A stretch of 32,000 bases of DNA from NCBI RefSeq assembly GCF_001306055.1, contig NZ_LGHJ01000008.1, forward strand, positions 60,001 through 92,000, read 5' to 3'. Below are positions 13,167-29,508 of this stretch, piece by piece. The stretch's first letter is position 1, and each line of letters opens with the position of its first letter. A program made the position numbers and the translations under genes. The notes under the pieces are model-generated. The model was not told the origin of the DNA. It made no database searches and saw only the letters and a list, made by a program, of their open reading frames with translations. The DNA is from Bellilinea caldifistulae. Its GTDB lineage: Bacteria; Chloroflexota; Anaerolineae; Anaerolineales; Anaerolineaceae.

Positions 13167-13173
13167 ACAACCT

Positions 13174-13210
13174 GCTGGCAAGGGTGGGGTATGGTTCTGC
13201 CCTTGCCAGC
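13174..13210 (+). terminator. stem-loop immediately after flp (attenuator-type, no U tract)
   Basis: GCTGGCAAGGG (13174-13184) pairs perfectly with CCCTTGCCAGC (13200-13210) around a 15-nt loop. Confidence 0.4.
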
Positions 13211-13238
13211 GCCTTACTTGATTATCAGGAGGTCGAAA

Positions 13239-13637
13239 ATGCGATTTCTATTCTCTAAACGTGCGATTGAGACATTGGAAGCTGCCATCACTTTCCCGAT
13301 CGCCATCCTGGTCATGCTTGCGACGGTTAACCTGGGGATGGTGGTGTATGGTCAGCAAGCGGTGCAAGCAGCCGCCCGGCATGGGGCCCGCATGGGTAGC
13401 GTGGCGCAGCAGTGCGGCGCTTGCTATGCCGCCAGCGCAGCCAGCAGCGCTATCGATAGCGACCCAATCGTCAAAGAACCCAGCGTGGCCATCCTTTCCC
13501 CAGGCGGAGTGGCCGGCAGTATCCTGAGCGTGCGGGTTTCGGGCACAATCCCCAGCTTCCTGGGCACCCTGGTTCCCGGATTGCCCGGCAATTTTCCAGT
13601 TTCGGCGGAAGCGACCTTCCGGCAGGAGGGATGGTAA
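13239..13637 (+). CDS. tadE: TadE-like pseudopilin
   Basis: AGGAGG precedes ATG 13239. The N-terminus MRFLFSKRAIETLEAAITFPIAILVMLATVNLG matches the TadE N-terminal pattern. Confidence 0.75.
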   Translation: MRFLFSKRAIETLEAAITFPIAILVMLATVNLGMVVYGQQAVQAAARHGARMGSVAQQCGACYAASAASSAIDSDPIVKEPSVAILSPGGVAGSILSVRVSGTIPSFLGTLVPGLPGNFPVSAEATFRQEGW

Positions 13638-14080
13638 TGATGCTCAAGCTGCTGCAAGATAAACGCGCTTACTCGTTGACCTTCTGGACAGTCTTCTTTG
13701 GCTTTGTCCTGATCCCGATCATGGCTTTAGGGATCGAGCTGGGCCGTTACTACTACGCCAGGGCGGAGATAGCCAAGGCAGCCGATGCCGCCGCCCTGGC
13801 TGCCGCTGCGGAAATAAGCCAAAGGGTGTTTGAGGAAACGGGGGACTTGCAGCCTACCAGTAAAACCTGGGCTAACGCCCAGGCCTTTGCCAGTATGAAT
13901 AACGGCTACCTGGCGCAGTATGGGGTAAATGCGGTCGTGACAGGGATAACGGTGGACGCAAAGGATGATACGGTATTGGTGCAGGTATCTGCGAATCTGG
14001 AAAGACTATTTCCAAGCGTGGTGCCGGGTGTGATTGTCACAGAGAGAGGCTTTGCCAAAATTCGCGCATTTACGCATTGA
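13631..14080 (+). CDS. tadG: TadG-like (Tad_N) pilus assembly protein
   Basis: TFWTVFFGFVLIPIMALGIELGRYYYARAEIAKAADAAALAAAAEI matches the TadE/G-like N-terminal pattern. ATG candidates are at 13631, 13637 and 13640. Confidence 0.7.
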   Translation: MVMMLKLLQDKRAYSLTFWTVFFGFVLIPIMALGIELGRYYYARAEIAKAADAAALAAAAEISQRVFEETGDLQPTSKTWANAQAFASMNNGYLAQYGVNAVVTGITVDAKDDTVLVQVSANLERLFPSVVPGVIVTERGFAKIRAFTH

Positions 14081-14227: not shown

Positions 14228-14947
14228 TCAATCACCCGTTCGCCACGAGCTCACGTGATCGTTCAAAGCATAGAAACTGGAGCAATTCGGTCCACAGGAA
14301 TATGTCGGTCCGGTGTAATTGGTGAAGTCGAAAACCTCGAGCACGTTGCACCCTGAGTACGAACTACCTGAAGCAAATTTGTTATCCAGATTGCTAGGGA
14401 GTGATGTCTTCCCGTAACTGATCGAGGTTGAACAACCAGAAGGACCGTAATACTCTACCAGGAGAGATCCATAGTTCGTGTTATCGTAGAATTTAGCAAT
14501 CAGGTAGCTTGAGTCAAGCGAGATACCATTGATCGAATCAATCGGGCCGCTGGAGCAAACCGGTTCCGATTCCTTAGATTCTTGTTCGCCAGGTTGGATC
14601 GGCTCAAGGAAGAACACACAGCGGTACACTGATTCCTGGGACGGGCCAAAGACCACTTCGCTCTTTTCAGTTGGCTCGTATGGCATTATTTCCCAGCCTT
14701 CATCTCCTGGTTTGATGGGCTCGAGGAATTCAACCTGCGCTTCTGTGATGGGCTCACATCTCTGGTCACTGGTCGTCGAGCTCGAATCTCCTGTCTGGAT
14801 CGGCTCGAGGTTGACAACCTGAGCATAGCCAGGGGGACATTCCAGCTCTGCTCCGATGTTCTCAGCAGAGGCCCTATGGATCGCATATGCCATCAGGCCG
14901 CCCGCCAGGACGAGAATCCCAATAGCTAACAGTATTTTTCGCAGCAT
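14228..14947 (-). CDS. secreted protein with three LEPIxPG repeats and C-terminal beta/gamma-crystallin-like Greek-key motifs
   Basis: GGAGGTG lies upstream and the signal peptide is MLRKILLAIGILVLAGGLMAYA. The repeats are NLEPIQTGD, FLEPIKPGDE and FLEPIQPGEQ. Two motifs (FYDNTNYGS...; FDFTNYTGPTY...LNDHVSSWR) resemble Greek-key signatures. Confidence 0.6.
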   Translation of the reverse strand: MLRKILLAIGILVLAGGLMAYAIHRASAENIGAELECPPGYAQVVNLEPIQTGDSSSTTSDQRCEPITEAQVEFLEPIKPGDEGWEIMPYEPTEKSEVVFGPSQESVYRCVFFLEPIQPGEQESKESEPVCSSGPIDSINGISLDSSYLIAKFYDNTNYGSLLVEYYGPSGCSTSISYGKTSLPSNLDNKFASGSSYSGCNVLEVFDFTNYTGPTYSCGPNCSSFYALNDHVSSWRTGD

Positions 14948-15031
14948 ATTTGCACCTCCTGAAATAGATTTGATTTAGCTGCTCCACCGATTTCAGGATA
15001 GCAAATTAGGTGTCAAGTCTTTGTTAAGTGT

Positions 15032-16258
15032 TTATGAATTGGGGAAATCGCCCTTATCTGCGGGCAGCCAGATCGTAAAGATGCTGCCCACACCCGGTGT
15101 ACTTGTTACCTCAATATGACCGCGGTGTAACTGTATAATATGAGCTGCGATGGATAAGCCCAGTCCAGCTCCCCCCTTGTGCTGGTCACGTGATTTGTCC
15201 ACCCGGTAGAATCGCTCGAAAATGTGAGGAAGTTCTTCTGAAGGAATTCCGATTCCCGTATCTGAAACTCTGATCAGGATCCATCCTTCCCGTCGTTGGA
15301 CGGCGACCTTAACAGAACCACCAGAATGATTATAGCGGATTCCATTCTCTATCAGATTGCTTATTGCTCTAACCAGTAGAGGCCCGTTGGCCAGAAGCGT
15401 CTCTTCATGCACTGACTCTAGGTGTAAAGTCACCCCGCAGCTTTGCGCCAGAAGGCGGTTTTCTTCCAGGGTCTCCTCTATCAAGACACCCAGGTCGACG
15501 GGTTCCAGCCGCAACTCTTTTTCCCCACTGGTCAGCAAGAGGAGATCCTCCACCAATCTTTCCAATCTTGTTAAGGCTCGATCCTGGACGGCAGCGGCCT
15601 GTCGGTAGTCGGCCAGAGAAGCCTCAGAATCCTGTTGGAGCACTTCTAGGTTCATGCGCAGAGTTGCCAGTGGGGTGCGCAATTCGTGGGCTGCATCGGC
15701 CACAAATTGACTTTGTTGTTCGAAAGCCCGTTCCAGGCGCGCCAGCATGTCATCGAAAGCATCAGCCAGTTCTTTCACCTCATCTTGCGGCCCATCCAGG
15801 GAGAGCCGCCGATGAAGCGTGTCGGCTCGGATTTGTCGAACCAAGTCGCCAAGATTATGCACTGGGTGTAATGCTTGAAGGGTGATCCAATAAGCGCCCA
15901 AGGCTCCCAGCAGGGTGAAAATTCCTACCCCGATCAGTGAGATGATGCGCACTTCCCGGATGGCGATCTCCTGGACCTGTTCGGCAACCGGCGCTACCTC
16001 TGCAAATGGCACGAGCGTTTGAGTTTCTGAAGGAGCTGGCGAAGAGCGCGTGGGTACCAATTCAAAGGACTGCTCAGTCGGCGCCAGCAGCTCGACGCTA
16101 ACCGCCCGAGGCAACCTGGCGGCCGTCAGGCTGTTGATAAGCACGATCAGCCCCAGGCCCATCGCAAACAACAAACCGGCCGTCCAGAGCGTCAATCTCC
16201 GGTGCAGCGTAAAGGACCTGGCAAGAGTATGCCGTGTATTTCCTAAAAACACCCTCAT
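15032..16258 (-). CDS. sensor histidine kinase (TM-HAMP-HisKA-HATPase)
   Basis: The H-box is AAHELRTPLATL, the N-box is NLIENGIRYN, and G-boxes are DTGIGI and GGAGLGLSIA. It has a 4-nt overlap with the regulator gene. Confidence 0.9.
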   Translation of the reverse strand: MRVFLGNTRHTLARSFTLHRRLTLWTAGLLFAMGLGLIVLINSLTAARLPRAVSVELLAPTEQSFELVPTRSSPAPSETQTLVPFAEVAPVAEQVQEIAIREVRIISLIGVGIFTLLGALGAYWITLQALHPVHNLGDLVRQIRADTLHRRLSLDGPQDEVKELADAFDDMLARLERAFEQQSQFVADAAHELRTPLATLRMNLEVLQQDSEASLADYRQAAAVQDRALTRLERLVEDLLLLTSGEKELRLEPVDLGVLIEETLEENRLLAQSCGVTLHLESVHEETLLANGPLLVRAISNLIENGIRYNHSGGSVKVAVQRREGWILIRVSDTGIGIPSEELPHIFERFYRVDKSRDQHKGGAGLGLSIAAHIIQLHRGHIEVTSTPGVGSIFTIWLPADKGDFPNS

Positions 16259-16944
16259 GACAGATCCTCTTCTGGTACAAGGAGGCGATAACCCTGTCCG
16301 GTTACTGTTTCGATGAAGCGCGGCTTTTTAGCTGTATCTCCAAGTTTACGGCGCAGCGAATGGATGTGAGTCCGTACACTGGCGGTGAACAGGTTTACGT
16401 CCTCACTCCATACGTGCTCGATCAATTCCTCCTGGCTGACGACCTTGCCGGGATTGCGCATCAAATATTCCAGAATAGCCAGTTCCTTGCGAGTGAGCTC
16501 TAAACGTCGCTTCCCTTGCCAGGCTGTTCGGCTGGCTGGGTCTAATTTCAATTCACCAGCGCGTAAAATTGGTTCCCGCACCCGCAGATCACGCCTCATC
16601 AATGCCCGGATGCGGGCTACCAATTCTTCAAAATGGAAAGGCTTGATTAAATAATCATCCGCGCCCAGGTCTAAACCGGCCACTTTATCTTCAAGCCGGC
16701 TGCGAGCTGTCAACATCAAAATAAGTAGCTGTGGCTGTTTGGTGCGCAGTTGGCGGCAGATATCGAGTCCATCCATGCCAGGCAAATTGAGATCCAGGAT
16801 CAACAAGTCGTACTCATTGACCTCCGCCAGCTCCAGGCCCTGCTCGCCATCCGCGGCAAGATCCACCGCATAGCCAAGTTTTCGCAGGCCACGCGCCAGT
16901 GCATTTGCAAAGTCGACTTCATCTTCGATAATCAGGAGTTTCAT
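16255..16944 (-). CDS. OmpR/PhoB-family response regulator
   Basis: The receiver is MKLLIIEDE...DLLILDLNLPGMDG...LTAR, followed by a winged-helix C-terminus (LTRKELAILEYL...GQGYRL). Confidence 0.95.
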   Translation of the reverse strand: MKLLIIEDEVDFANALARGLRKLGYAVDLAADGEQGLELAEVNEYDLLILDLNLPGMDGLDICRQLRTKQPQLLILMLTARSRLEDKVAGLDLGADDYLIKPFHFEELVARIRALMRRDLRVREPILRAGELKLDPASRTAWQGKRRLELTRKELAILEYLMRNPGKVVSQEELIEHVWSEDVNLFTASVRTHIHSLRRKLGDTAKKPRFIETVTGQGYRLLVPEEDLS

Positions 16945-17134: not shown

Positions 17135-17365
17135 GGAGACCCGACGCCCATCTGGACCAACGCCCAGGCCTTTGCCAGCATGAATAATAGTTACATGGCG
17201 CAATACGGTGTGCATGCCGTAGTGACAGGTATTATGGTAGATGCTAGTGAGGATACGGTGCTGGTGCAGGTGTCCGCAAATTTAGAGAGGTTGTTTCCAA
17301 GCGTGGTGCTGGAGGTGGTTGTTACCGAAAACGGATTTGCTAAAATAAGAGCATTTACCAGATAG
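17135..17365 (+). pseudogene. orphan diverged copy of the tadG 3' end
   Basis: It translates as ..NGDPTPIWTNAQAFASMNNSYMAQYGVHAVVTGIMVDASEDTVLVQVSANLERLFPSVVLEVVVTENGFAKIRAFTR, against residues GDLQPTSKTWANAQAFASMNNGYLAQYGVNAVV...RAFTH of 13631..14080. It has no N-terminal domain and no RBS. Weaker similarity may reach back to about 17075. Confidence 0.65.
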
Positions 17366-17408
17366 GTGATCAGGATAAAATATCATAATGAAACTTTAGT
17401 AAATACTA

Positions 17409-17438
17409 TTGACAAACTATGTAAACTAATGCTATAAT
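17409..17438 (+). promoter_or_regulatory. sigma70-type promoter (TTGACA-N18-TGcTATAAT)
   Basis: TTGACA lies at 17409-17414 and TATAAT at 17433-17438, preceded by TG (extended -10). It sits in an AT-rich gap about 100 nt upstream of the first gene of the + strand module. Confidence 0.55.
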
Positions 17439-17472
17439 CTCAGCAATCGAATAATTCAGTCACATACACGTT

Positions 17473-17517
17473 GGCCGGGACACTCCTGCTGGAGATACGT
17501 TCCGGCCGTTTTTGTTT
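17473..17517 (+). terminator. terminator-like hairpin plus U tract inside the 5' leader (attenuator or short RNA)
   Basis: GGCCGG at 17473-17478 pairs with CCGGCC at 17502-17507, with further inner pairs. GTTTTTGTTT follows at 17508-17517. The element lies between the promoter and the RBS (AGGAGG) of ATG 17539. Confidence 0.45.
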
Positions 17518-17538
17518 AACCACTTTTAGGAGGCTACC

Positions 17539-17931
17539 ATGATCAACGAAGTCGTTCTCGAAGGGATTGTCGTCAAGACCTGGAAGTATGCCGAAGACCT
17601 GCTCTTCCGCATTGCCTGCTACCGCGATCCGGATCTGCCTTCCAAGTCGCTGAACGATGTACCGGATGCGGCTGATTTCGTCACCATCCGCGTACTCAAG
17701 GGCAACCTGGGCGCGCCAGTGGTAGTCGAGAAAGGTTACCACGTGCGGGTGCACGGTTTCTTGCAGAGCCGGGATTACGAAGAGAGCCTGGCGGACTTCC
17801 TGAAGGATGCCCGTGGGGCGGAGCTGCCGGTTCCGGAAAACCTGGATCCGAATGAGTTGCGCGCTCCGCGCGGTACGACCGAAGTCATTGCCCGGCGCAT
17901 CATGAGCCAGCGCAACGGATCGAAAAGGTGA
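17539..17931 (+). CDS. OB-fold ssDNA-binding-like protein without acidic tail
   Basis: AGGAGG lies upstream. NEVVLEGIVVK...FRIACYR...DFVTIRV...GYHVRVHGFLQSRDYEE resembles the SSB/PriB beta-barrel pattern. The assignment is by pattern only. Confidence 0.5.
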   Translation: MINEVVLEGIVVKTWKYAEDLLFRIACYRDPDLPSKSLNDVPDAADFVTIRVLKGNLGAPVVVEKGYHVRVHGFLQSRDYEESLADFLKDARGAELPVPENLDPNELRAPRGTTEVIARRIMSQRNGSKR

Positions 17932-18508
17932 CTCGTTTGACTGAATAGCCGTTTTCTACTGACGGCGATTCGCAATCATTCGCTTTATCCATCAGGGGGA
18001 TATCGCAGAACAACCGAATAGTTCAGTTGATTATACGTAGGCCGGTGTGCTTCCCCCAGGAGGGTTGTACACCGGCCTTGCTGCTTTAAGAGCAGCCTGC
18101 ACCTTGAAAAACAGCCTCTTTGTGTAAACGTTCTGCCCTGGCAGGCGGTGGCCGCTGCCCCTTACTCCGGGGGCGGGTGTCATTCCCAGAACATGGGAGT
18201 GCCGTGAGAAGCGCTGGAAGTCGTCCGCAAAGGCCAGGCTCATAAGATGCCAAATACTGAATGTATTGGCTGCCCGGTTGGCATACCACCGGCCGGGCAG
18301 CCTCTAATGGAACAGAGCAGCAAACTTTGTCCGCTGAGCCTCCGCTTGGCAGTCAAGGTTTGCTGCCCTGACGTGCCCTGAAGTTATGGAAGGGAAACAA
18401 GGGACAGTAAAGCGTTAGTTGGTGCGCCATCATATCTGGCGCAGTAACGTCGGAAACCAATCCCCAAACGTTTTTCTTCTGACACGAAAGGAGCGTAATG
18501 CATAAACG

Positions 18509-19654
18509 ATGACTACCGCACCCCCCATCCTGGAAAACCAATTCCAACATGAGCGCATGGCCCGGGCACAGGCTGCTCTACAGAATGGCGACATGCAGGT
18601 GATGGTCTTGACCGACTTCGCCTGGATAGTTGCCAGCAAGCGCAGCCATTACACCGTCTCGCTAGATGGCGACGCCTGGACCTGCACCTGCCCGGATTTC
18701 ACCGGACGCTGTCAGCGTTTTGGCTTGCGCTGCAAGCACATCGAAGCGGTCCGTCTCATTGAGACTGAGAAGATCGCCGAATCCGGGCAGGTAAGCCAGT
18801 ACACGTATCCACAGTTCTCAACCACTCACACGGAGGAACAAATGACCCAATCTGTACCAACACACGATCCACCTACGCTCGACTCATCTAGCGAGCAGAT
18901 CCTTTGGCGGCTGCGACAACCGCTGGATATGAACCGCGTCAAGCGCCGCCAGGCTCCCGGGCAAGGAACAGTCCCTTACCTGGAAGGTTACGATGTGATC
19001 GAAACCGCCAACGACCTGTTTCTGTTCCACTGGTCGTTCGACCTGCTCAGCGAGCCGCACATCATGCGCTGGGACAAGGTGATCACCTTCTACGATCAGC
19101 GTTCCAGGAAGAAGGTGCCGGTTCTGGGCGAAGATGGCAAACCAACCACGGAGATCGCCGGCATCGCTTACATCACCGGCCGGATCACGGTCGAACTGGA
19201 CGGCAAAGCCTACAATCATGCCGATGCCGGGCGCTGCATCTTCACTGGCGATACGCCCGAAGCCCTGGATATGGCCATCGCCGGCGCGGTCACTGACTGC
19301 CTGAAACGCTGCTTCCGCCAGCTGGGCGAGCAGTTTGGCAATAGCCTGTATGACAAGGAGATCGCAAGGACTGCCGGGCTGGAGAACGGTTCTTCGAATG
19401 GTCACGGATCGAACGGCAACGGGCAATCCGAAAAATCGACCAGTCAATCGGCATCGCCTAACTCGCCAGTGGCATCCAATTCGCCCGCATCCCAGGCGGA
19501 GGCGCTGCAATACCGGGATGGCGTAGCGGTGGACACAAGCAACGCTGCGGAATTGGAGGCTTTCAATGCCTTCAAGTCCGCCCATCAGGAGCTGGCTCCC
19601 GCCTCGCGCGAAGTGTTGCGCGCCTGGGTCGCCAGCCGCAACGGTAAGAAGTAA
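18509..19654 (+). CDS. SWIM zinc finger fused to Rad52/22-family single-strand annealing protein
   Basis: The SWIM motif CxCx(n)CxH is WTCTCPDFTGRCQRFGLRCKHIEAV. The Rad52-like core is VKRRQAPGQGTVPYLEGYDVIETANDLFLFHWSFDL...CLKRCFRQLGEQFGNSLYD, followed by a Ser/Asn-rich tail. Confidence 0.8.
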   Translation: MTTAPPILENQFQHERMARAQAALQNGDMQVMVLTDFAWIVASKRSHYTVSLDGDAWTCTCPDFTGRCQRFGLRCKHIEAVRLIETEKIAESGQVSQYTYPQFSTTHTEEQMTQSVPTHDPPTLDSSSEQILWRLRQPLDMNRVKRRQAPGQGTVPYLEGYDVIETANDLFLFHWSFDLLSEPHIMRWDKVITFYDQRSRKKVPVLGEDGKPTTEIAGIAYITGRITVELDGKAYNHADAGRCIFTGDTPEALDMAIAGAVTDCLKRCFRQLGEQFGNSLYDKEIARTAGLENGSSNGHGSNGNGQSEKSTSQSASPNSPVASNSPASQAEALQYRDGVAVDTSNAAELEAFNAFKSAHQELAPASREVLRAWVASRNGKK

Positions 19655-19684
19655 TCCCATATTTGAGAGACGGAGGAAAATCCC

Positions 19685-20104
19685 ATGTCATTCCAAACGA
19701 TCATCATCACCGGTCATCTCGGCCGCGACCCGGAGATGCGCTACACCCCTGCCGGGCAGGCTGTGACTAACTTCAACCTGGCTGCCAATAGGCAGTACAC
19801 TGACTCGAGCGGCCAGGTGGTGAAGGAAACCACCTGGTTCCGGGTTTCTGCCTGGGGCAAGACTGCGGAAAACTGTAACCAGTACCTGCACAAAGGCAGC
19901 CTGGTGCTGGTGGAAGGCCGGCTGGTGTGCGACCCGGAGACGGGCGGACCACGGCTCTATACCCGCCAGGATGGCTCGCCCGCCTCATCCTTCGAAGTGA
20001 GCGCCAGTACGGTGCGCTTCCTGTCGGGGCGTGAAGGGGAAAGCGAACCCGAACCTGCCGGGAATGGCTCGGCTGCACCCCAGCACGATGCCATTCCGTT
20101 CTGA
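19685..20104 (+). CDS. ssb: single-stranded DNA-binding protein
   Basis: The OB fold is IIITGHLGRDPEMRYTPAGQAVTNFNLAANR...WFRVSAWGKTAENCNQYLHKGSLVLVEGRL, followed by a Gly/Glu-rich linker and a terminal DAIPF tip. Confidence 0.95.
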   Translation: MSFQTIIITGHLGRDPEMRYTPAGQAVTNFNLAANRQYTDSSGQVVKETTWFRVSAWGKTAENCNQYLHKGSLVLVEGRLVCDPETGGPRLYTRQDGSPASSFEVSASTVRFLSGREGESEPEPAGNGSAAPQHDAIPF

Positions 20105-20168
20105 TCCACACGAGATTGCCCTGGGTACGCCTGGGGCAATCTTCTGAATTCCCCACACGGAGGCAAAC

Positions 20169-20516
20169 ATGATCAAGAAGATTTACCGCGGCGAACCGGG
20201 CGGGTTAGTGAAAGTGATCCTGCCATCCGGCAAGTCGCGGCCCTTGCGACACGTGGTGCTGCATAGCCCAACCGGTTTCGGTTGGGGTTATGGCGGCTCT
20301 GGACCGGCAGACCTGGCACTGAGCATCTTGTGCGACGTACTGGGCGAGCGACCGTCTGAGAAGCAGGTCTACCACGGACGGTTCAAAGCCTACCCACACC
20401 ACCAGGATTTTAAGCGTGAGTTTGTCGCCCGATGGGAGTATGGCAGCGGGTTCGAGATCGCCCCGGATACCATCGCCGGTTGGCTGCGCAAGCGAGGCGT
20501 GGAGGTGCAGCCATGA
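20169..20516 (+). CDS. conserved hypothetical (HSPTGFGWGYGGSGPADLA motif)
   Basis: ACGGAGG precedes the ATG. I recall this motif from a phage/plasmid-borne family of unknown function, but I do not assert a family name. Confidence 0.6.
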   Translation: MIKKIYRGEPGGLVKVILPSGKSRPLRHVVLHSPTGFGWGYGGSGPADLALSILCDVLGERPSEKQVYHGRFKAYPHHQDFKREFVARWEYGSGFEIAPDTIAGWLRKRGVEVQP

Positions 20517-20806
20517 CCGATGAGTACATCCTTGTACTGAGCGAAGCGAACGTATCTGATGACGGTCCCGGCTCCGACCTGTTCGATCCCTACGAGACCG
20601 GCTGGTGGAAATCTGTCTCCAGCGATGAATCTGCACCTGCAGATCAGCCATGCCCGAATTGCAATGGCGAAGGTTACGTTGTCGTCCGGGTCTATCCCTG
20701 GGACGGCTGTTCGTATGATGAAGAGCCATGCAAGTTCTGTAATCCGAGGAAGGATTACACAGAGCTGGATGACGAGTTCCTAGAGGATGTGGATATCCCC
20801 TTCTAA
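20513..20806 (+). CDS. acidic small zinc-ribbon protein with SSB-like C-terminal tip
   Basis: The start has an ATGA overlap with the upstream stop (the listed start 20432 is too long). It has CPNCNGEG (CxxCxGxG) plus CKFC, and ends ...DDEFLEDVDIPF. Confidence 0.6.
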   Translation: MTDEYILVLSEANVSDDGPGSDLFDPYETGWWKSVSSDESAPADQPCPNCNGEGYVVVRVYPWDGCSYDEEPCKFCNPRKDYTELDDEFLEDVDIPF

Positions 20807-20858
20807 TCGCTTCTCACCGTTGGCATTTCAATTCCCACACGTCCTGGAGGTACACAGC

Positions 20859-21284
20859 ATGCAAGATATCCTGAACCAAAAGGCGGGGATCGATCTGGCA
20901 GACAGGCCCACCCGCATCCGTGTGATCGGGCACACCTACCTGGTCGATTTCGGTCCTTCGACCCAACCCCGTTTTCACACCGTCAACAAGCAGCGCAGCT
21001 GCTCATGTCAGTTGAAGGAAAACTGCCCGGCCATCGAGGCTGTGGCGGAGTACCTGCGCAACGGCGGGCAGCGCGCTCCCGACCCGATGCCGCCCTGCCC
21101 GATTTGCGGCGCGGAGATTGTCCGTGACCGCAAGTGGGATGGCAAGTACACCAAGGAGCTCGGCTGGCGCTGTACGGTAGGAGGTCTTCGACACTTCCTG
21201 GACGCCAAAGCCGAACGCATAAAAGAGGCGCTTCGCCGCAATCAAACAGCGGTCAGCGAACACGAAAGTGCAGCTGGCCGCTGA
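20859..21284 (+). CDS. hypothetical zinc-finger protein (degenerate SWIM-like plus zinc ribbon)
   Basis: GGAGG precedes ATG 20859 (MQDILNQ). CSCQLKENCPAIEAV parallels the SWIM of 18509..19654 but lacks the His. CPICG...WRC forms the ribbon. Confidence 0.6.
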   Translation: MQDILNQKAGIDLADRPTRIRVIGHTYLVDFGPSTQPRFHTVNKQRSCSCQLKENCPAIEAVAEYLRNGGQRAPDPMPPCPICGAEIVRDRKWDGKYTKELGWRCTVGGLRHFLDAKAERIKEALRRNQTAVSEHESAAGR

Positions 21285-21301
21285 TTTTTTAATTGGAGGA
21301 A

Positions 21302-21766
21302 ATGATGCAAGTACACACGTTAACCCACATGGAATTAGAACCCACGCCAGTGCAGATCGGCGAGCCGTTCCGCTGCTGGGAATGTGGTTCGCCTGACCAG
21401 GGCGGTATGTTCCTGATCATCGACCACTCCCCGCTGGAAGCCTACACCGATCATGTCTACTACATGCGCCTGGCCTGCGGACACAACCCGCGCTGTGTGC
21501 GCCTGGGCGATGCCATTGCCCCGCTGCGCCCGCTGGACCGCTCGATTGATGAGAACCTGGCGAGTGTGCGTGAAGGATTGGCGCACCTGGCCAAAGCCGT
21601 ACCGCCCGATCAGCAGAACCAGGAGCCGGTCTCCAAGATCGTCTACCTGCTGGTCGCCGGGCGCATCTCGCCCCAGACAGCGATCAACCAGCTGCGCGGC
21701 CTGGTACGTACGAACGAGCCGTTCCTGCCTGCCCGGCTGCCTGTCATCGAACAAACCTGGCGGTAA
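21302..21766 (+). CDS. hypothetical protein (Cys/His-containing)
   Basis: GGAGGA at 21295-21300 precedes ATG 21302/21305. It contains CWECG...ACGHNPRC. A hairpin terminator follows. Confidence 0.55.
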   Translation: MMQVHTLTHMELEPTPVQIGEPFRCWECGSPDQGGMFLIIDHSPLEAYTDHVYYMRLACGHNPRCVRLGDAIAPLRPLDRSIDENLASVREGLAHLAKAVPPDQQNQEPVSKIVYLLVAGRISPQTAINQLRGLVRTNEPFLPARLPVIEQTWR

Positions 21767-21788
21767 TACCGCTACAACCAATTCACAC

Positions 21789-21828
21789 GCCGCCCGCTCT
21801 GGAACCCTCCAGGGCGGGCGATTTCTTT
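21789..21828 (+). terminator. rho-independent terminator
   Basis: CGCCCGCTCTGGA (21791-21803) pairs with TCCAGGGCGGGCG (21808-21820), with one G-T pair, around an ACCC loop. ATTTCTTT follows. Confidence 0.6.
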
Positions 21829-21842
21829 ACACGGAGGAAAAC

Positions 21843-23009
21843 ATGTGCCAGTTGCTTTTACTGCCGGATAAGCCCGGCAACACGAAATACACCCCTAAGC
21901 ACAAGCTGCTCCCATTGCGGGAGCGCCCGGTCGAACGTGTCAGCGCTCGTGCGGATGCCTGCACGATCATAGAGCTGTTGGCTGCCTTGCTGGGCGGGCC
22001 GCAGCCAATTGAAACTGCCGATGCCCTGCTGGCGCACTTCAACGGCCGGCTATCTGACCTTCGCCGCGCGCCGGCGCACGAGATTGCTGATATCCCCGGC
22101 ATTGGGCAGCAGAATGCCGCCCGTATCAAAGCGGCGGTAGAGCTGGGGCTGCGCCTGACTCTCAATACTGAGGAAGATCGCCCAACCATCCACAGCCCAG
22201 CCGATGCGGCTGCTATGTTGCAGCACGAGATGAGCGCCCTGGAACAGGAGCACCTGCGCGTGATCCTGCTGGACACGCGCAACCGGGTGATCGACATCGT
22301 GGAGATCTACCAAGGCAGCCTGAACTCCGCTCAGGTGCGGGTGGCCGAGCTGTTCAAGCCCGCCATCCAGCGCATGTCGGCGGCGATCATCCTGGTGCAT
22401 AACCACCCCTCGGGTGACCCGACGCCCAGCCCGGACGATGTAGCTGTAACCCGCGCAGTTGTTCAAGCGGGCAAGCTCTTGGATATCGACACGCTGGATC
22501 ACCTGGTCATTGGTCGTGGGCGTTTCGTTTCGCTCAAAGAGCGTGGCCTGGGTTTTGACGGTCGCGTTTCTGAGACAAGACCTGGTTATCACCTGCGATC
22601 AGCCAGATATTCCATCCATGAAGATGACGATATGATTTACGCTTACACTCGCTCCCAGGCGTTAGAAGATGGCGTTCTTGTCGATGTCTCTGAAATGGCA
22701 TCGGAAGCCGGCTTTCGCTATCCAACCGCCATCACCGCCGACTTGCATGCCCGCATCACACCGAACGAGCGGGAGAAAGCGTTTGGTCAGAGCTATGAAG
22801 GCCGGCTGTGGGATGTGATATTTCTAGCGTCCTTCGCCGCTCGCCGATCAGATACACAAGATCGATGCAGCTTCGAGGTCGGTCTTTTCGAAGCTGACGA
22901 GGCTTTTCCACATCGCACCCACCGCTACACGCTCTCGTTATGGATGGTCGTCGGTCCTGGCGATCAGGGCGAGCCGGTTATCACGATCGGTTTTCCCGAG
23001 GATTTTTAG
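21843..23009 (+). CDS. radC: RadC-like JAB/MPN protein fused to a C-terminal domain of unknown function
   Basis: ACGGAGG precedes ATG 21843, and the listed ORF start 21453 overlaps the previous gene. It has an HhH region (IADIPGIGQQNAARI) and the JAMM motif HNHPSGDPTPSPDD. The RadC part ends near 22556 (KERGLGF), and about 150 further residues follow (MIYAYTRSQALEDGVLVDVSE...). Confidence 0.85.
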   Translation: MCQLLLLPDKPGNTKYTPKHKLLPLRERPVERVSARADACTIIELLAALLGGPQPIETADALLAHFNGRLSDLRRAPAHEIADIPGIGQQNAARIKAAVELGLRLTLNTEEDRPTIHSPADAAAMLQHEMSALEQEHLRVILLDTRNRVIDIVEIYQGSLNSAQVRVAELFKPAIQRMSAAIILVHNHPSGDPTPSPDDVAVTRAVVQAGKLLDIDTLDHLVIGRGRFVSLKERGLGFDGRVSETRPGYHLRSARYSIHEDDDMIYAYTRSQALEDGVLVDVSEMASEAGFRYPTAITADLHARITPNEREKAFGQSYEGRLWDVIFLASFAARRSDTQDRCSFEVGLFEADEAFPHRTHRYTLSLWMVVGPGDQGEPVITIGFPEDF

Positions 23010-23019
23010 GGAGGCGGCC

Positions 23020-24129
23020 ATGACTGGAAAAACTAACCCAGCCCTGCCTGCCCCCTTCGAGAACACCTACTTCCGGGAACGCGCCATCAAAGCTGCCAAC
23101 CGGCAAAAGCAGGGACACATCCTGGTTTCTGGTTCCAAACCGGACAACGGTCAAGGCTTGCCCTTGCCGTACATCCACGATGTTCCCGGCCTGCGGCGCG
23201 GCAGCTATCCCTACGACTACGAATGCGAATGGGGACGCTTCAAGTACGAATATGAATTGAGCGCCTATCTCTTCACACCCCACAACAGCCAGGTTCCACC
23301 CGGCTGGGAGCATTACGACCTGCTAACACCCATCCAGTCGGTGACTGCCATGATCGACCGGGCGCGTCGCCTGGCGACCATCAAGACCCCGGACCACGAG
23401 ATCGTCCTGCGGGATGTACCGGTGGGCGATAGCCCTTACAACCTGCTTCAGCAGGTCAACGCTGCCCTGGCGCAAAGCTGTCAGCCCTTCGTGGCCTGGC
23501 GGCTGGAGTGGGTCAGCGGCGAGGTTGACCAGCTGTGGCTGGAAGGCGTCCCGCAGGTCCGTAATGAACACTGCTCGGCCTATGTCACCGGCTACGCCCA
23601 TGATGAAGCCGGCAACCTGGTCTACCTGGGCATGGTCGGGCACAAAACGGTGCTGGAGTCGATCCGGGCCACCGTCCAGGCCCGCCAGCGCAAGAGGCTG
23701 TTCCTGCAAGGCCGGCCGGTTTACCCACTGCCCACCCACTACTGCCAGACCTGGCAGCACTTGCCAGACTATGGTGTTTACCACGCGACTCTGATCGCCG
23801 ATCCCGCCCTGCCGGGCAAGTGGCAGCCGGGGGAGGAGGTAATTTATTTACTCGTTTTCGAGGGTGAACTGCCGGATGGATCGTTGCCGGAAACTCAGGC
23901 TCGACGCGTTCTCGCTTCTCGCCTGTCAGAAACATTACCAATCCCGATTCTGGACGAATGGCATGAATCTCTCTGGGAGGCGAGGCAGCGGGAGAACCTG
24001 ATCGTTGGGCTGGAAACCGGCGGCGATTGTCAGGAAGGATACCTGGTGCAGTTGACCGAGACGATATGGAAGGAGGTGATTACCAGATTATTGATGGAAC
24101 GAAAGATTCGGATTTCCAGCGGTCAATGA
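23020..24129 (+). CDS. hypothetical protein (369 aa)
   Basis: GGGAGG lies upstream. It is co-directional and tightly spaced after radC. No motif recognised. Confidence 0.6.
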   Translation: MTGKTNPALPAPFENTYFRERAIKAANRQKQGHILVSGSKPDNGQGLPLPYIHDVPGLRRGSYPYDYECEWGRFKYEYELSAYLFTPHNSQVPPGWEHYDLLTPIQSVTAMIDRARRLATIKTPDHEIVLRDVPVGDSPYNLLQQVNAALAQSCQPFVAWRLEWVSGEVDQLWLEGVPQVRNEHCSAYVTGYAHDEAGNLVYLGMVGHKTVLESIRATVQARQRKRLFLQGRPVYPLPTHYCQTWQHLPDYGVYHATLIADPALPGKWQPGEEVIYLLVFEGELPDGSLPETQARRVLASRLSETLPIPILDEWHESLWEARQRENLIVGLETGGDCQEGYLVQLTETIWKEVITRLLMERKIRISSGQ

Positions 24130-24301: not shown

Positions 24302-25030
24302 TTAGAAACGAGCTGGCGAAATATGGATAGAGCTCAAGCGTCCATTCCCCATCACAAATTCTGCATCACAAAGTTCATCGATCTCCTCTCGGCTATGGCT
24401 GGTCAACAGGATTGTAACCCCATCAGCTCTCAGTTCTTTCAACAGTCGATGCACATCCTTTATCCCTTCCCGGTCCAAACCGTTTGTGGGTTCGTCAAGA
24501 AGTAAGAGCCTGGGGTTCTCCATGATTGCCTGGGCAATTCCAAGACGCTGGCGCATTCCGGTCGAATAAGTGCGCACCGGCTTGGGTTCGTACGGATCCA
24601 GTCCAACCAGACGTATCGTGTTTACAATATCTTCGCGGGAAATCCTGTTTCGTATCATTGCCAATAACTGCAAATTTCGGAAACCGCTGTAGTGTGGCAA
24701 AAAACCCGGTGTCTCGATCAGGACACCTGTTTCGCCAGGAAATTCCACGTCTTTCCCTATTTCCCTCCCAAATATCCAGACCCGCCCCCGAGTTGGATGT
24801 ACCAGCCCACAAATAACGCGTAATAACATGCTTTTCCCCGATCCATTTGGACCGCTAATGCCGTAAATCTTGCCAGGGGGGACGTTCAAGTTGATGCCAT
24901 CCAGGATGAGGCGATCTCCAATTTGTTTGGACACCCCTTCTATGGCAATGGCTAACTCTGCCTCCCGTGTGGGTTTCTCGATATTTTCAGACTCCATTTT
25001 TATCATTACTCCATCTTTCCTTCCTAACAT
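24302..25030 (-). CDS. ABC transporter ATP-binding protein
   Basis: Walker A is GPNGSGKS, the signature is YSTGMRQRL and Walker B is LLLLDEPTNGLD. The ATG overlaps the upstream TGA. Confidence 0.9.
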   Translation of the reverse strand: MLGRKDGVMIKMESENIEKPTREAELAIAIEGVSKQIGDRLILDGINLNVPPGKIYGISGPNGSGKSMLLRVICGLVHPTRGRVWIFGREIGKDVEFPGETGVLIETPGFLPHYSGFRNLQLLAMIRNRISREDIVNTIRLVGLDPYEPKPVRTYSTGMRQRLGIAQAIMENPRLLLLDEPTNGLDREGIKDVHRLLKELRADGVTILLTSHSREEIDELCDAEFVMGNGRLSSIHISPARF

Positions 25031-25890
25031 CAAGTCGCAGGGCCATAGATGTCCATTCGTCGCACGTACCAGGTGCCCACGCCGAACACAATTAGAAACA
25101 ATGTGATGTTATAGATGAGCGACCATTCCATTGAAAATCCGGGCACATTCGGATCAAAGAACGTGTGTCGTAACAGCATTGATTGAGATCCAGGTAGCCA
25201 ACGACTCAAATACGGGTTGTCGATTCCCAAAAGCCAGGAAATAATCGTCACAACCGAGATCGCGCTAAAGCCATAGAAAGAGCGTCTGCTGATAAGTGAT
25301 AAGGTCAACTGCATAGAAGCCAGCGCGTATAGAGTGCTACTGAACAAGATGAAAATCCACCCCAGAAGTGCACCAATTTCCATACCCATTGGCATAACCC
25401 ACATATCACCAGAAATCATCAGTTTGCTTGGTTGCCAGGACCAGGGCAATACGATTGATCCCCCGGCTAAGACTGCAAAAACAATCACCAATACATATCC
25501 GATCGCAAAGATCCATAAGGCAACTGCTTTTCCAAACCACCAGCGAAGTCGAGAACCAACCAATGGGACAACCGCATATCCCCTATACAGCAATTCGCCA
25601 ATGGCAATGTCACCGAACAGATAGAAGAAAAGGATATGGGATATTAGCCAGGGCAATGCCTGTAGCAAAGAATAACCCCAAACGCCCGGCCCGGAAAATG
25701 AAACGAAGAAGGCATCCCAAAGATTAACTGTCATTGCACCCTGGGAGGAACTTAACCGCTCGACAACTTGTATTGCACTGCGCCAACCTATGAATCCAAA
25801 GAGAACAAATACTCCGGCGAGGGAATGCCATCGCAGCGAAGTTCGCAGGTTCCAGCATATCGTGGTGAATAATGGAGCACTGCTCATCAT
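25030..25890 (-). CDS. ABC-associated polytopic membrane protein (paralogue of next gene)
   Basis: It has about six TM segments. NLWDAFFVSFSGPG...VGSRLRWWFGK parallels NSWDALFSVFGNGN...VGSRRRWWLSK in 25887..26747. The stop and start overlap by 4 nt. Confidence 0.7.
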   Translation of the reverse strand: MMSSAPLFTTICWNLRTSLRWHSLAGVFVLFGFIGWRSAIQVVERLSSSQGAMTVNLWDAFFVSFSGPGVWGYSLLQALPWLISHILFFYLFGDIAIGELLYRGYAVVPLVGSRLRWWFGKAVALWIFAIGYVLVIVFAVLAGGSIVLPWSWQPSKLMISGDMWVMPMGMEIGALLGWIFILFSSTLYALASMQLTLSLISRRSFYGFSAISVVTIISWLLGIDNPYLSRWLPGSQSMLLRHTFFDPNVPGFSMEWSLIYNITLFLIVFGVGTWYVRRMDIYGPAT

Positions 25891-26747
25891 TGCTCTCTAT
25901 GTATAAAATCTTGTTTGTGGGCAAACTTGAATCCAACGATCAGTAAAATGGAACACCATAAAACCCAGTAATATATTGAAGTCGGTAGTGATGGATACGG
26001 TGTTATTACGTCACCAAAAGAGTGGAGGTTAAATAACAGGTGTTGATGGATAGACAGGTAAGCATAAGGAAGGGGTAAGTTCGCCCTCAAAGCGACCAGC
26101 CCGCTAAAGTTAGCAATGACGCCGGCGGTAAACCCAACCAGATAGTGATTAGAAAGCAGGGTGAAGCACATGACCAACAGTCCCATGCTAAACCATCCAA
26201 GCGATAGTAGAAGAAGAAGCCATCGAATAGCAGATGTGGATGAAATGGTTAATGCTTCTGGATTAAGATTAAATTCCTGTGGATATTGTAGAACTGCTTG
26301 GCTCCAGGAATTATCCCAGGGAAGGACAAACGTGGCTGTCATTGCAACAATCCCAACGTTCAAACCAGTATAACAAAACACCGCTAATCCTAAAATCAGG
26401 ACTTTACTCAACCACCAACGTCTTCGCGAGCCCACGCGTAACAAGGCGAGTTGACCAATCCCCGACTCGAGAAACATGTCGCTGACCAGGTAGAGATAAA
26501 GCGGATTAAGCACAAAAAATATCAGATTGCCATTGCCGAAAACGCTAAATAAGGCATCCCATGAATTGCTGCTCAACCCGTAATTTCTGGCACGAACCAG
26601 CACCCCCCCAATAACAATATACGAAATAAACAGAATTGTAGGGATCGGCAATAACCAGCGCATGCGCAGTAATTTTTGCTCGATTTGGAAGTACAGGTAG
26701 CGCACAGGGATTATCCTCTGTCGTTGCTTCTTTGTTAATTTTCTCAA
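25887..26747 (-). CDS. ABC-associated polytopic membrane protein
   Basis: It is a paralogue of 25030..25890 and has 4-nt overlaps on both sides. Confidence 0.7.
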   Translation of the reverse strand: MRKLTKKQRQRIIPVRYLYFQIEQKLLRMRWLLPIPTILFISYIVIGGVLVRARNYGLSSNSWDALFSVFGNGNLIFFVLNPLYLYLVSDMFLESGIGQLALLRVGSRRRWWLSKVLILGLAVFCYTGLNVGIVAMTATFVLPWDNSWSQAVLQYPQEFNLNPEALTISSTSAIRWLLLLLSLGWFSMGLLVMCFTLLSNHYLVGFTAGVIANFSGLVALRANLPLPYAYLSIHQHLLFNLHSFGDVITPYPSLPTSIYYWVLWCSILLIVGFKFAHKQDFIHREQ

Positions 26748-27547
26748 ATTCTACTTTTCACCTTGTGTGCCATAACGAAGTACAGCACGGTGCTGATGAG
26801 AAATACGCCTCCTAAATTGGTTAACACGTTCAGCCACGTAATATGATTCAACCAGTGGGGGACAAAAGCTGAAACAGGCGACCAGGCCGGTATCCCTAGA
26901 ATCGCCAAACCGTAATGGACTATATTGTAAAGGACGAAAGGCGTTGCCAGGACGATGTAGCGATTGTCCGTGAGCGCAGAAAGCGATAATCCAAAAATCG
27001 CGTAAGTTGCCCCAAACAAAAAACTTAATGCGATCAGGGACAAGATATATAGATCAGGCGCTGATTTGTACAAAGCGCCAAACGGTCCGAGAGCCTCCGG
27101 CATAGATAGTACACGCTGCTCAAACGGATCTGGATTTAAACCTCTGGGTAGAACAAGATTCGTGAAGGCAAAGTATAACAGCATCGGTAAAGACACGGCC
27201 AGGCCGCCGGATAAGAAAGAGATCGCGTATTTCGCCGAGAGGTAGCAGCGATAGGTAGTCCTGCTCAGAACGAGACGTAAATAGCCCAACCCGCGATCGT
27301 GAGCGAATGAGTCTGCGAAAGGTAAAACCGCAATGAGAGGGACAATGAGTCCGATGAGCCCCTTTTGGGCCCAGATCACGGCATCATAGGCATTGTTGTA
27401 AAAAGGAGGCAGTCTGGCAAGATACTCAGGGTCTGAAGGGCCCGACATGTAATCTACATAACCATAGGCCAGGGCGAGAAGTCCTAAAACGACTGCAAAA
27501 AAGAAAGAACGGCTGAGAAAGGCTCGGTTTATCTCTTCACGTAGCAT
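26744..27547 (-). CDS. ABC-2-type permease-like membrane protein
   Basis: It is the first gene of a four-gene translationally coupled operon. It has six hydrophobic spans with a long first external loop. Confidence 0.7.
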   Translation of the reverse strand: MLREEINRAFLSRSFFFAVVLGLLALAYGYVDYMSGPSDPEYLARLPPFYNNAYDAVIWAQKGLIGLIVPLIAVLPFADSFAHDRGLGYLRLVLSRTTYRCYLSAKYAISFLSGGLAVSLPMLLYFAFTNLVLPRGLNPDPFEQRVLSMPEALGPFGALYKSAPDLYILSLIALSFLFGATYAIFGLSLSALTDNRYIVLATPFVLYNIVHYGLAILGIPAWSPVSAFVPHWLNHITWLNVLTNLGGVFLISTVLYFVMAHKVKSRI

Positions 27548-27597
27548 GGCATTTTGTCATTTATTCACAGTTTTGGCTCGACCATTAATTATACGGG

Positions 27598-27638
27598 CAA
27601 CTGCGCGGACGGAGGGAATCGCACTGTCCGCGCAGTTG
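27598..27638 (-). terminator. perfect 13-bp hairpin between secreted-protein gene and ABC operon
   Basis: CAACTGCGCGGAC (27598-27610) pairs with GTCCGCGCAGTTG (27626-27638) around a 15-nt loop. There is no clear U tract. Confidence 0.4.
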
Positions 27639-27665
27639 AGGTGCGTCTCGGGTTAGTGAAGTATT

Positions 27666-28100
27666 TTAGAATCCACAAGATCCAGGATTGTCTGGGCTCC
27701 ACTTCCCAATTGCCTGCACATCAACAGGCGTGGTTATATAAGTGGCGATGCGAGCATGGTATTGCTGGTCCGCTGTAGAAGGATTCAAAGTGTATTCCCT
27801 ACGTTGATTGTCACTAATCGATTGATAACCCGCAGCCACGTTATTGTTAAGGAGCTCGATCCTTGCTCGCAGTGTGTAATCACCCCCTACAGCCTGGCTA
27901 CAAACGACTGCTTTATCGGTTGAGCTCACTTTCGTCTGGTTGTTTGTTGACGTTGAACCACCAAACTTGGGCACAGTGACATTGTAGTTATAAAACGAAC
28001 CTGCCGCAAGGGCTTCTCCTACAACAAAAATGCTGAGGGGCGTTACGAGAAAGACCGAAAGGATCAGACGGGCTTTCTCCAAAACTTTTCTGCGAATCAA
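27666..28100 (-). CDS. secreted hypothetical protein (144 aa)
   Basis: It has a signal-peptide-like N-terminus (LILSVFLVTPLSIFVVGEALAAG) and a beta-rich polar body. The TTG start is uncertain and no SD is visible. Confidence 0.5.
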   Translation of the reverse strand: MIRRKVLEKARLILSVFLVTPLSIFVVGEALAAGSFYNYNVTVPKFGGSTSTNNQTKVSSTDKAVVCSQAVGGDYTLRARIELLNNNVAAGYQSISDNQRREYTLNPSTADQQYHARIATYITTPVDVQAIGKWSPDNPGSCGF

Positions 28101-28223
28101 GCAAATGGATATGTTCGATTGTATATGACATTATGCTTTTTACCAGTTCATCTCCTTTCTACCCTTCACGGGCTTCAGGGTTTTTCCTTTTCTCATCAGA
28201 CATACATTTGTTATTTTTTAGAA

Positions 28224-29505: not shown

Positions 29506-29508
29506 TGG

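Follow-up and report, generated by a model that had tools for sequence, protein, structure and literature searches.

The leading or establishment regions of ICEs and of conjugative plasmids such as F, pESBL and pLS20 carry co-oriented genes behind a strong promoter, together with ssb, an orphan methyltransferase and small uncharacterised genes (PMC11541004). Single-stranded DNA-binding proteins (SSBs) and orphan methyltransferases are enriched in these regions (Samuel & Burstein 2024, PMC11541004). A gene array of Bellilinea caldifistulae resembles them in these features and also holds RadC and DUF6573, which are known as neighbours from conjugative plasmids. The array occupies 17409-24129 of the window, the whole 32-kb stretch of DNA analysed here (about 1,247,891-1,279,890 of DF967971.1, assembly GCA_001050215.2), and a methyltransferase-helicase gene lies further to its right. 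Unlike a leading region, the array is part of an element with no recognised oriT, relaxase or type IV secretion system (T4SS) and no psiB, ardA or klcA-type gene. In addition, the array is conserved backbone, the element family has a Rad52 annealase, DnaN and an exonuclease, and a long, apparently structured RNA is found as against a short Frpo hairpin. The array is probably a conserved DNA-processing operon of an Anaerolineae integrative element of about 50 kb, with the structured RNA in its transcript.

Phage recombination modules of the Rad52/Sak type with SSB are also similar to the array, in that an SSB gene adjoins a Rad52-family annealing gene within an element that also has an Xre/ImmA-type switch and a serine integrase. 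Unlike these modules, the element lacks virion genes and has an annealase with a SWIM finger at its N-terminus and an additional tail-less SSB-fold protein, and the array is embedded between a pilus locus and the methylase-helicase. In the TdtA-type system of Thermus ICETh1 and the TraB-type systems of Streptomyces, an integrated element has a HerA/FtsK-superfamily hexameric ATPase in place of the classical relaxase and T4SS. The ATPase of the present element, known from genes alone, differs in its long Ser/Thr/His-rich linker, and a complete Tad-type pilus locus comes after its gene. The RNA is comparable to ROOL, GOLLD, OLE, HEARO and raiA, which exceed 500 nucleotides (nt) and have many conserved covarying helices and swappable peripheral hairpins. 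ROOL and GOLLD lie in prophages, and the RNA of the element is likewise tied to mobile DNA; it differs from these large non-coding RNAs in having no Rfam 15 match and in lying inside an operon, between the SSB-fold and Rad52 genes. Antitermination and attenuator systems (lambda N-nut, HK022 put and pLS20 conAn) share with the array a terminator-like hairpin right after a strong promoter, a long operon read in one direction with more such hairpins inside it, and an RNA element early in the transcript. However, no homologue of a known antiterminator protein or RNA was found here, and termination in the array is predicted from sequence.

The region is chromosomal in B. caldifistulae and not plasmid-borne, and the array is part of an integrative mobile element of about 50 kb. 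A site-specific recombinase lies at one end of the element and the flanking genes vary between genomes. The element recurs in many Anaerolineae metagenome contigs at differing chromosomal sites, and its backbone genes are all on one strand. A metagenome scan with the Rad52 protein of the array gave 80 loci, in which Rad52 identity is at least 72% for clade 1 and about 48% for clade 2. The features of the array and the gene beyond it are as follows.

17409-17438, + strand: sigma-70 promoter, TTGACA-18-TGCTATAAT with TG extension (12/12 consensus match)
17466-17518, + strand: leader with ACACG box, long hairpin (17473-17507) and U-run GTTTTTGTTT (terminator scan, conservation)
17539-17931, + strand: predicted SSB-fold OB protein, 130 amino acids (aa), no acidic tail (AlphaFold2 (AF2)/Foldseek, PDB profile)
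17932-18508, core about 17990-18480, + strand: structured non-coding RNA candidate of about 575 nt (conservation, covariation)
18509-19654, + strand: SWIM zinc finger plus Rad52/Rad22-family annealing protein, 381 aa (Pfam)
19685-20104, + strand: canonical SSB, 139 aa (PF00436, TIGR00621)
20169-20516, + strand: DUF6166 protein, 115 aa, clade 1 only (PF19663, E 1.8e-19)
20513-20806, + strand: CxxC...CxxC zinc-ribbon protein, 97 aa, clade 1 only (translation)
20859-21284, + strand: Cys-rich protein, 141 aa, both clades (no family match)
21302-21766, + strand: Cys-rich protein, 154 aa, clade 1 only (no family match)
21784-21828, + strand: second element with CACACG, 13-bp hairpin and T-rich run (terminator scan)
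21843-23009, + strand: in-frame fusion of RadC (HhH and JAB) with DUF6573, 388 aa (Pfam, NCBIfam)
23020-24129, + strand: orphan, 369 aa, with a possible C-terminal winged-helix-like region (no family match)
30647-32000, continuing past the window, + strand: DUF6094 methyltransferase-SNF2-like helicase (Pfam, flanking locus)

The first-pass annotation, made from the letters of the window, had described a single-orientation array headed by a strong promoter. All of the genes are on the + strand with coordinates that match the gene calls, and the promoter at 17409-17438 is a perfect sigma-70 sequence, the sole 12/12 match. The SSB-like first protein of that annotation has an SSB fold by AF2/Foldseek, though without a sequence-family match, while its annealing protein and SSB are confirmed by Pfam (SWIM plus Rad52_Rad22, and PF00436). 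The methyltransferase-helicase placed beyond an AT-rich island is the DUF6094 gene from 30647. The protein listed as RadC does have the RadC domain, but is corrected to an in-frame RadC-DUF6573 fusion. The 577-nt stretch free of open reading frames (ORFs), the hairpins at 17473-17518 and 21784-21828 and the putative SSB-tail mimic had been overlooked.

The gene order is shared by both clades. It runs TadE, TadG, a cargo position, the 130-aa gene, the gap of about 575 nt, Rad52, SSB, the 141-aa gene and RadC, followed by the 369-aa gene, a further cargo position and the DUF6094 methylase-helicase. Three genes, those for DUF6166 and the 97-aa and 154-aa proteins, are restricted to clade 1. Identity of clade-1 proteins to those of the window is 85-98% for the 130-aa protein, 91-97% for SSB, 84-98% for RadC-DUF6573, 67-84% for the 97-aa protein and 77-85% for the 369-aa protein, and array protein identity across close relatives is 76-98% overall. 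From these comparisons the array is conserved core backbone and not a variable island; the variable cargo adjoins it on the other strand. In clade 2, RadC is separated from the 369-aa gene by a 3'-5' exonuclease, small orphans and a beta-clamp (DnaN); the set in a 50%-identical relative is Toprim, SSB, DUF2958, DnaN, RadC, the orphan and the methylase-helicase. The beta-clamp and 3'-5' exonuclease that relatives carry in the array make it read as a replication/recombination module.

The array could instead be a true conjugative leading region, with oriT just upstream (e.g. 17473-17507), + strand genes that enter first and small unknowns that form an anti-defence reservoir. The HerA-like ATPase and the Tad-type pilus of the element would then substitute for a classical T4SS. 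The single orientation, the two SSB-type proteins, the orphan methylase-helicase and a RadC|DUF6573 combination shared with conjugative plasmids are all in keeping with this explanation, and the DUF6166, 97-aa and 154-aa genes would be its clade-specific accessories. However, the array is for the most part strongly conserved and not variable, the DnaN and exonuclease of relatives indicate replication, and PLSDB plasmids contain no relative of the 130-aa protein. A leading region is somewhat unlikely, and the evidence of the leader hairpin, the transfer genes and the anti-defence searches is given with those features below.

The 577-nt stretch between the first gene and the Rad52 gene contains the structured RNA candidate, and its 3' end holds the Rad52 ribosome-binding site. 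A hidden gene in this gap was ruled out, as it has no conserved ORF and its indels are not multiples of 3. Nucleotide identity is 70-89% across more than 30 loci. The fold z-score against shuffles is -6.8 on the + strand and -4.5 on the - strand. A 21-sequence alignment gives a consensus structure of 115 pairs, with 97.5% of the cells paired. Compensatory changes occur in 13 of the 115 pairs, compared with 3.9 +/- 1.5 in shuffles (0/500 reach 13) and 2-4 with slid partners. Peripheral hairpins are exchanged for unrelated hairpins at the same positions. There are 315 G-U cells against 18 A-C cells; G-U accounts for 13% of paired cells and is the commonest form in 14 pairs. Since the G-U cells far outnumber the A-C cells, the stretch points to an RNA that is read from the + strand.

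The RNA candidate is also found across the clades. With a two-helix covariance model built from clade 1 only, the syntenic + strand position is matched in 27 of 29 clade-2 loci with the gap, at E-values of 0.001-0.05 each, and an intermediate locus matches at E 3e-11. Comparison of the two clade consensuses shows compensatory changes in 13 of 35 pairs, in an alignment that was fitted to the model and hence leans towards structure. Reverse-strand matches of the model were set aside as by-products of palindromic helices. No Rfam 15 family reaches its gathering score anywhere in the window, which also contains no tRNA or tmRNA, and a search of 17350-18560 at E up to 10 gave chance-level hairpin matches only. 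In one locus (L032, 8900-9736) a 278-aa reverse-strand gene is inserted in the RNA, between consensus positions of about 373 and 388. So far the RNA has been seen only in this Anaerolineae element family.

It is quite unlikely that the 577-nt stretch acts as single-stranded DNA, that is, as a single-strand origin or Frpo-type promoter for priming or early transcription. Such a role would suit its place between an SSB-type gene and the ssb and annealase genes, which is that of Frpo in F-like plasmids (PMC11541004). It would also suit the strong strand-specificity of folding and the several single-stranded DNA-binding proteins that the element encodes. However, the 13% of G-U cells, the 14 G-U-dominant pairs and the near absence of A-C are typical of RNA. 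The stretch is about twice as long as known ssi/Frpo elements, which are 50-350 bp (PMC11541004), it lies within an operon downstream of a strong double-stranded DNA promoter, and its stems have no -35/-10 motif. No promoter-like hexamers were found in 17932-18508. With 577 nt, RNA-type G-U pairing and no hexamers, the stretch does not have the form of a Frpo/ssi-type single-strand promoter.

The promoter at 17409 is the only 12/12 match in the 32-kb window, and 0 were found in 100 shuffles. TTGACA-N17/18-TAnAAT is retained in most clade-1 relatives irrespective of the upstream sequence. The leader hairpin and its U-run separate the promoter from the first start codon in both clades (proteins about 45% identical). 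The second element sits between the 154-aa gene and RadC and consists of the hairpin at 21791-21820 plus ATTTCTTT. This hairpin is kept in clade 1, and its stem carries a compensatory C-G to T-A change. Both 17473-17507 and 21791-21820 have the form of an intrinsic terminator: each is a G+C-rich stem-loop with a U-run immediately after it in the transcribed strand. The hairpins may be terminator-type gates and, with the sequences given next, leader signals that backbone operons share. The 5' part of the structured RNA (18033-18090) resembles the leader, and its 3' end is related to a box in front of another operon of the element.

1316-1348, + strand: box of about 33 nt, AACGTTGGAAACCAATCCCCACACGTT, in the leader of the operon with a 74-aa gene, the HerA-like ATPase and the Tad genes

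Almost the same sequence as this box (AACGTYGGAAACCAATCCCCAMACGTT) stands at the 3' end of the RNA (18446-18478), in the Rad52 leader. The box is kept in relatives, with nhmmer matches in loci L002, L003, L015, L016, L017 and L019. Two other candidates were dropped. The short box AACGTYGG is not retained as a general operator (5 copies against 1.8 expected, with the copy at 30472 unlike the others), and CACACG-hairpin is not enriched as a repeat across the window.

The leader also bears on the leading-region explanation, since in either clade the array is headed by a conserved inverted repeat with a conserved 5' box. However, the hairpins show no Frpo-like -35/-10 motif. The first-pass annotation had looked to oriT and the relaxase for transfer polarity, and neither was recognised in the element. 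Because Pfam, NCBIfam and PHROG scans of the backbone proteins, in both flanks and in relatives, recognised no relaxase, VirB4 or coupling protein, and no oriT or nick site was recognised in the ~50 kb, the position and entry polarity relative to oriT that define a leading region cannot be set, and the 17473-17507 hairpin is a candidate only. Of possible transfer machinery these scans gave only the HerA-like ATPase and the Tad-type pilus. The absence of relaxase, VirB4 and type IV coupling protein (T4CP) families from the backbone proteins counts against this explanation.

The first gene of the array encodes the 130-aa protein. Its AF2 model has a predicted local distance difference test (pLDDT) score of 86, and the top 20 Foldseek matches are all SSB or PriB. 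The best of these are bacterial SsbB/SsbA, with E-values down to 9e-6 and a probability of 1.0. A broad sequence profile of the protein matches S. aureus SSBs in the PDB (E 0.0025). No Pfam, PHROG or NCBIfam match was found. Membership of the SSB family (PF00436) by sequence was dropped, since there is no Pfam match and the hhalign result is not significant. The protein is among the three most conserved of the array, and its relatives form 233 clusters at 50% identity. Several relatives of 250-294 aa are tandem duplications of the 130-aa protein fold, and in the protein P0393 (1037 aa) 16 separate stretches match residues of about 66-112.

The SsbB matches of this tail-less protein could also suggest a host competence-type regulon, in which a Tad pilus would take up DNA and SsbB-like, RadC and annealing proteins would process the incoming DNA. 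The competence regulon of Firmicutes includes radC and ssbB, and Tad pili mediate transformation in Micrococcus. However, the block is flanked by a recombinase and an Xre/ImmA pair at loci that vary between genomes, its GC and cargo patterns are island-like, and no ComEC, ComEA or DprA occurs in the Pfam results for window proteins. A competence regulon is very improbable.

The second gene encodes the SWIM and Rad52-type protein, which matches PF04098 (E 3.4e-17, 63.2 bits against a cut-off of 20.3) and PF04434 (E 1.7e-6). The match to TIGR00607 rad52 (E 7.8e-13, 48.3 bits) is under the curated cut-off of 224.8 bits, and in the phage collection only distant Rad52-like recombinases were found. 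The SSB at 19685-20104 matches PF00436 (E 1.6e-29, 102 bits against a cut-off of 26) and is above the TIGR00621 cut-off. Its C-terminus is ..D(D/A)IPF (here ..AIPF) and is kept in all relatives.

The small proteins after SSB differ in their distribution. The DUF6166 protein has no tblastn match in clade-2 loci and no PDB sequence match. The 141-aa protein is 55-91% identical across clades 1 and 2, while the 154-aa protein is 79-94% identical in clade 1 and has no match in clade 2 (tblastn). The 97-, 141-, 154- and 369-aa proteins have no family match in Pfam, PHROG, NCBIfam or PADLOC; the 97-aa protein has a weak DnaJ_CXXCXGXG similarity (Pfam). In most clade-1 homologues the 97-aa protein ends in an acidic ..E(E/D)(M/V)DIPF, the same tip as that of the SSB of the element. 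The SSB tip is the docking site of many host repair and replication proteins. The DIPF tail suggests that the 97-aa protein is an SSB-tail mimic, which might compete for or recruit the partners of SSB.

The RadC-DUF6573 fusion matches PF04002 (E 1e-40, 138.9 bits against a cut-off of 22.1) and PF20213 (E 1e-19), and the RadC part scores 196 bits with NF000642 (cut-off 180). The DUF6573 domain has no match in a PDB sequence search. RadC and DUF6573 are separate adjacent genes on Paenibacillus, Thioflavicoccus and Synechocystis plasmids, with conjugation genes near the pair in both plasmid neighbourhoods inspected (Paenibacillus and Thioflavicoccus). Because they are neighbours on plasmids and are fused here, the arrangement argues for a joint function. 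In clade 2 RadC does not have the DUF6573 fusion partner.

The 369-aa orphan is always located between RadC and the methyltransferase-helicase, and the triad of RadC, the 369-aa gene and DUF6094 is preserved in the 50%-identical relative. Among the best 120 of 150 scored homologues of the orphan, all are at least 50% identical and have no Pfam domain, and every named source is Anaerolineales. The AF2 model has a pLDDT of 68, only the N-terminal domain is confident (about 90), and Foldseek against the PDB and BFVD gave no significant fold match. The methyltransferase-helicase is uninterrupted in locus L014 (1156 aa). In B. caldifistulae it consists of DUF6094, a group II intron reverse transcriptase and then Helicase_C (locus L004). 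The intron (RVT_1, GIIM, HNH) is at 5136-6910 of that locus, about 33200-35000 in window coordinates. Intron-type reverse transcriptases also lie within the Rad52 and RadC genes of the relative L048.

The gene content suggests that the operon handles single-stranded or linear DNA. It may be switched on upon excision or replication of the element or upon its arrival in a new cell, and the promoter-proximal hairpin would be a terminator-type gate that needs read-through. The SSB-fold protein, SSB and Rad52 would then coat and anneal single-stranded or linear DNA of the element. SSB and the DIPF-tailed zinc ribbon may engage or divert host partners of the SSB tail. RadC-DUF6573, the orphan and the methyltransferase-helicase would join these proteins of the operon in protecting and establishing the element. 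The structured RNA in the operon transcript is most likely a regulatory or scaffold RNA, and it is possibly bound by the adjacent SSB-fold protein.

Several points weigh against a DNA-processing operon with a structured RNA. The timing of the operon (entry, excision or replication) is deduced from gene content only. The 130-aa protein is SSB-like in its predicted fold, an assignment that comes from the fold and a weak PDB profile match, and its hhalign comparison with a true-SSB alignment is not significant. No biochemistry can be assigned to four of the array proteins. The leader hairpin and U-run could be a DNA site instead, either oriT or a single-strand origin. The insertion in L032 may be a third cargo site, or it may mean that the RNA has modular, separable domains or is dispensable.

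An anti-defence role for the small genes had been proposed by the first-pass annotation in analogy to leading regions. The analogy itself stands in part: the one orientation, the SSBs, the orphan methylase-helicase and the RadC|DUF6573 pair agree with it, whereas no relaxase, T4SS or oriT was recognised. For the reservoir, the clade-specific small genes are in favour, but most of the array is conserved and the scans gave no such match. No anti-defence family was found with Pfam, PHROG (phage anti-restriction included), NCBIfam or PADLOC, and no dedicated anti-defence library was searched. The PHROG and PADLOC matches of the array are generic recombinase, SSB and RadC only, and those of the methyltransferase-helicase (PADLOC, NCBIfam) are generic methylase and helicase only. 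The lack of a PHROG or PADLOC anti-defence match in the array, with the same limit on the libraries searched, also speaks against a leading region. An anti-defence reservoir has no positive support beyond analogy, and its best candidates would be the clade-specific small genes and the DIPF-tailed protein.

The remainder of the element extends to both sides of the array. To the right the methylase-helicase is followed by a 72-aa gene, a large serine recombinase (domains Resolvase, Recombinase and Zn_ribbon_recom) and then an unrelated DUF389 gene. The left end, as seen in relatives, has an Xre-type helix-turn-helix (HTH) gene and an ImmA/M78-like gene that adjoin unrelated flanking genes. Left of the window are a further weak SSB, several orphans and an IS630-like transposase. 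The IS630-like HTH transposase and two reverse-strand orphans break the left backbone here (L002 6432-7760), but not in L015. The largest block of the element is the following.

1675-14080, + strand: HerA-like ATPase and Tad-type pilus block (Pfam, NCBIfam, PDB profile)

The HerA-like P-loop ATPase (1675-5178) is a serine-rich protein of 1167 aa with its Walker motifs in the C-terminal half. It matches NF033849 at 1328 bits, and its profile matches HerA/DUF87 of the PDB at E 2e-10. It is followed by a complete Tad-type pilus locus with CpaB, CpaE-like, CpaF, TadB, TadC, PEMT-like, A24 peptidase, TadE and TadG genes (Pfam). The order SSB, orphans, serine-rich ATPase, CpaB, ATPase, CpaF, TadB, TadC, pilin, A24 and TadE is also found on two Firmicutes megaplasmids, Ruminococcus albus pRUMAL01 (L010) and Alkaliphilus pB6464 (L011), where DnaE and primase genes adjoin the block. 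The HerA-like ATPase/Tad block of the element and the megaplasmids may be an unclassified DNA-transfer or secretion module. A HerA/FtsK-superfamily ATPase next to a pilus machine would be in keeping with the leading-region explanation.

The array might also be the recombination and replication module of a temperate virus-like element, i.e. a prophage early region, which is unlikely. The SSB, Rad52-type annealase, methylase, Xre/ImmA switch and serine integrase are typical of such a region, and an ImmA/Xre-like pair with a large serine recombinase suits a prophage layout. The relatives carry DnaN and an exonuclease, the PHROG matches are to recombinase, SSB and RadC, and the phage collection contains relatives, all of them Rad52-like annealases. 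A weak match of the HerA-like ATPase to a PHROG terminase family is a further point in favour. However, no capsid, portal, terminase, tail or lysis family was found in the ~50 kb (Pfam, PHROG) with the exception of this one match to the terminase large subunit, at E 3.5e-6, which falls on the ATPase motif of the HerA-like protein. The first-pass annotation had held that capsid and terminase genes nearby would make the region a prophage module; no structural phage genes are present apart from that weak match. IMG/VR contains neither a relative of the 369-aa protein nor a copy of the RNA motif, and a Tad-type pilus locus makes up the largest block of the element.

The structured RNA and the element with HerA and Tad genes are the most notable result, and a literature search found no description of either. 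The search, which covered the DUF families, the Tad plus HerA element and the structured RNA, gave nothing relevant. Structured bacterial RNAs of more than 500 nt are rare and mostly unexplained. It is conceivable, though distinctly doubtful, that the element is an undescribed type of DNA-transfer element, in which a Tad-type pilus and a HerA-type translocase replace the relaxase and T4SS and the first-acting operon is under the control of, or works via, a new class of structured RNA of about 575 nt. The RNA, the tail-less SSB-fold protein and the Rad52-type annealase would in that case act together, e.g. as an RNA-protein complex to gate read-through of the operon or guide the processing of the single-stranded DNA of the element. 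If the array is a DNA-processing operon with a structured RNA, the RNA would have a defined genetic setting (SSB-fold gene, Rad52 annealase, consensus promoter and terminator-type gate), and its function could be tested in cultured B. caldifistulae. A Tad-type pilus and HerA-like ATPase with no recognisable relaxase or T4SS would bear on the movement of DNA among monoderm-type anaerobes, which are poorly covered by present conjugation classifiers. Targets for tests of host takeover or anti-defence would be the DIPF-tailed zinc ribbon, the RadC-DUF6573 fusion and the triad of RadC, orphan and methylase/helicase.

The element also has cargo at two hotspots on either side of the array, and a short ORF just before the promoter.

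14228-16944, - strand: cargo of hotspot 1, a 239-aa uncharacterised protein, a histidine kinase and an OmpR-type regulator (Pfam)
17180-17365, + strand: 61-aa ORF, a second copy of the 3' part of the TadG-like gene (13631-14080)
24302-30123, - strand: cargo of hotspot 2, an AT-rich island with an ATP-binding cassette (ABC) transporter and a LuxR-type regulator (Pfam, GC)

The hotspot 1 cargo is missing or exchanged in relatives, where TadG abuts the array. The 61-aa ORF is 53-85% identical to the TadG C-terminus in every related locus (tblastn). Because the second copy of the TadG 3' end is present only in loci with cargo between TadG and the array, the 61-aa ORF looks like a scar at the edge of the two-component-system cargo insertion and not an independent gene. 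The hotspot 2 island has a GC content of 0.42-0.49, compared with about 0.58-0.61 in the array, and other genes take its place in L014, L012 and clade 2. It encodes an ABC ATPase, three membrane-type proteins of about 270-285 aa, small orphans and a LuxR/GerE regulator, and it looks like a bacteriocin-immunity or export cassette. In clade 2 the cargo beside the 369-aa gene includes a reverse-strand PD-(D/E)XK REase-ARP nuclease (L090 16685-17749 and L077 15017-16039).

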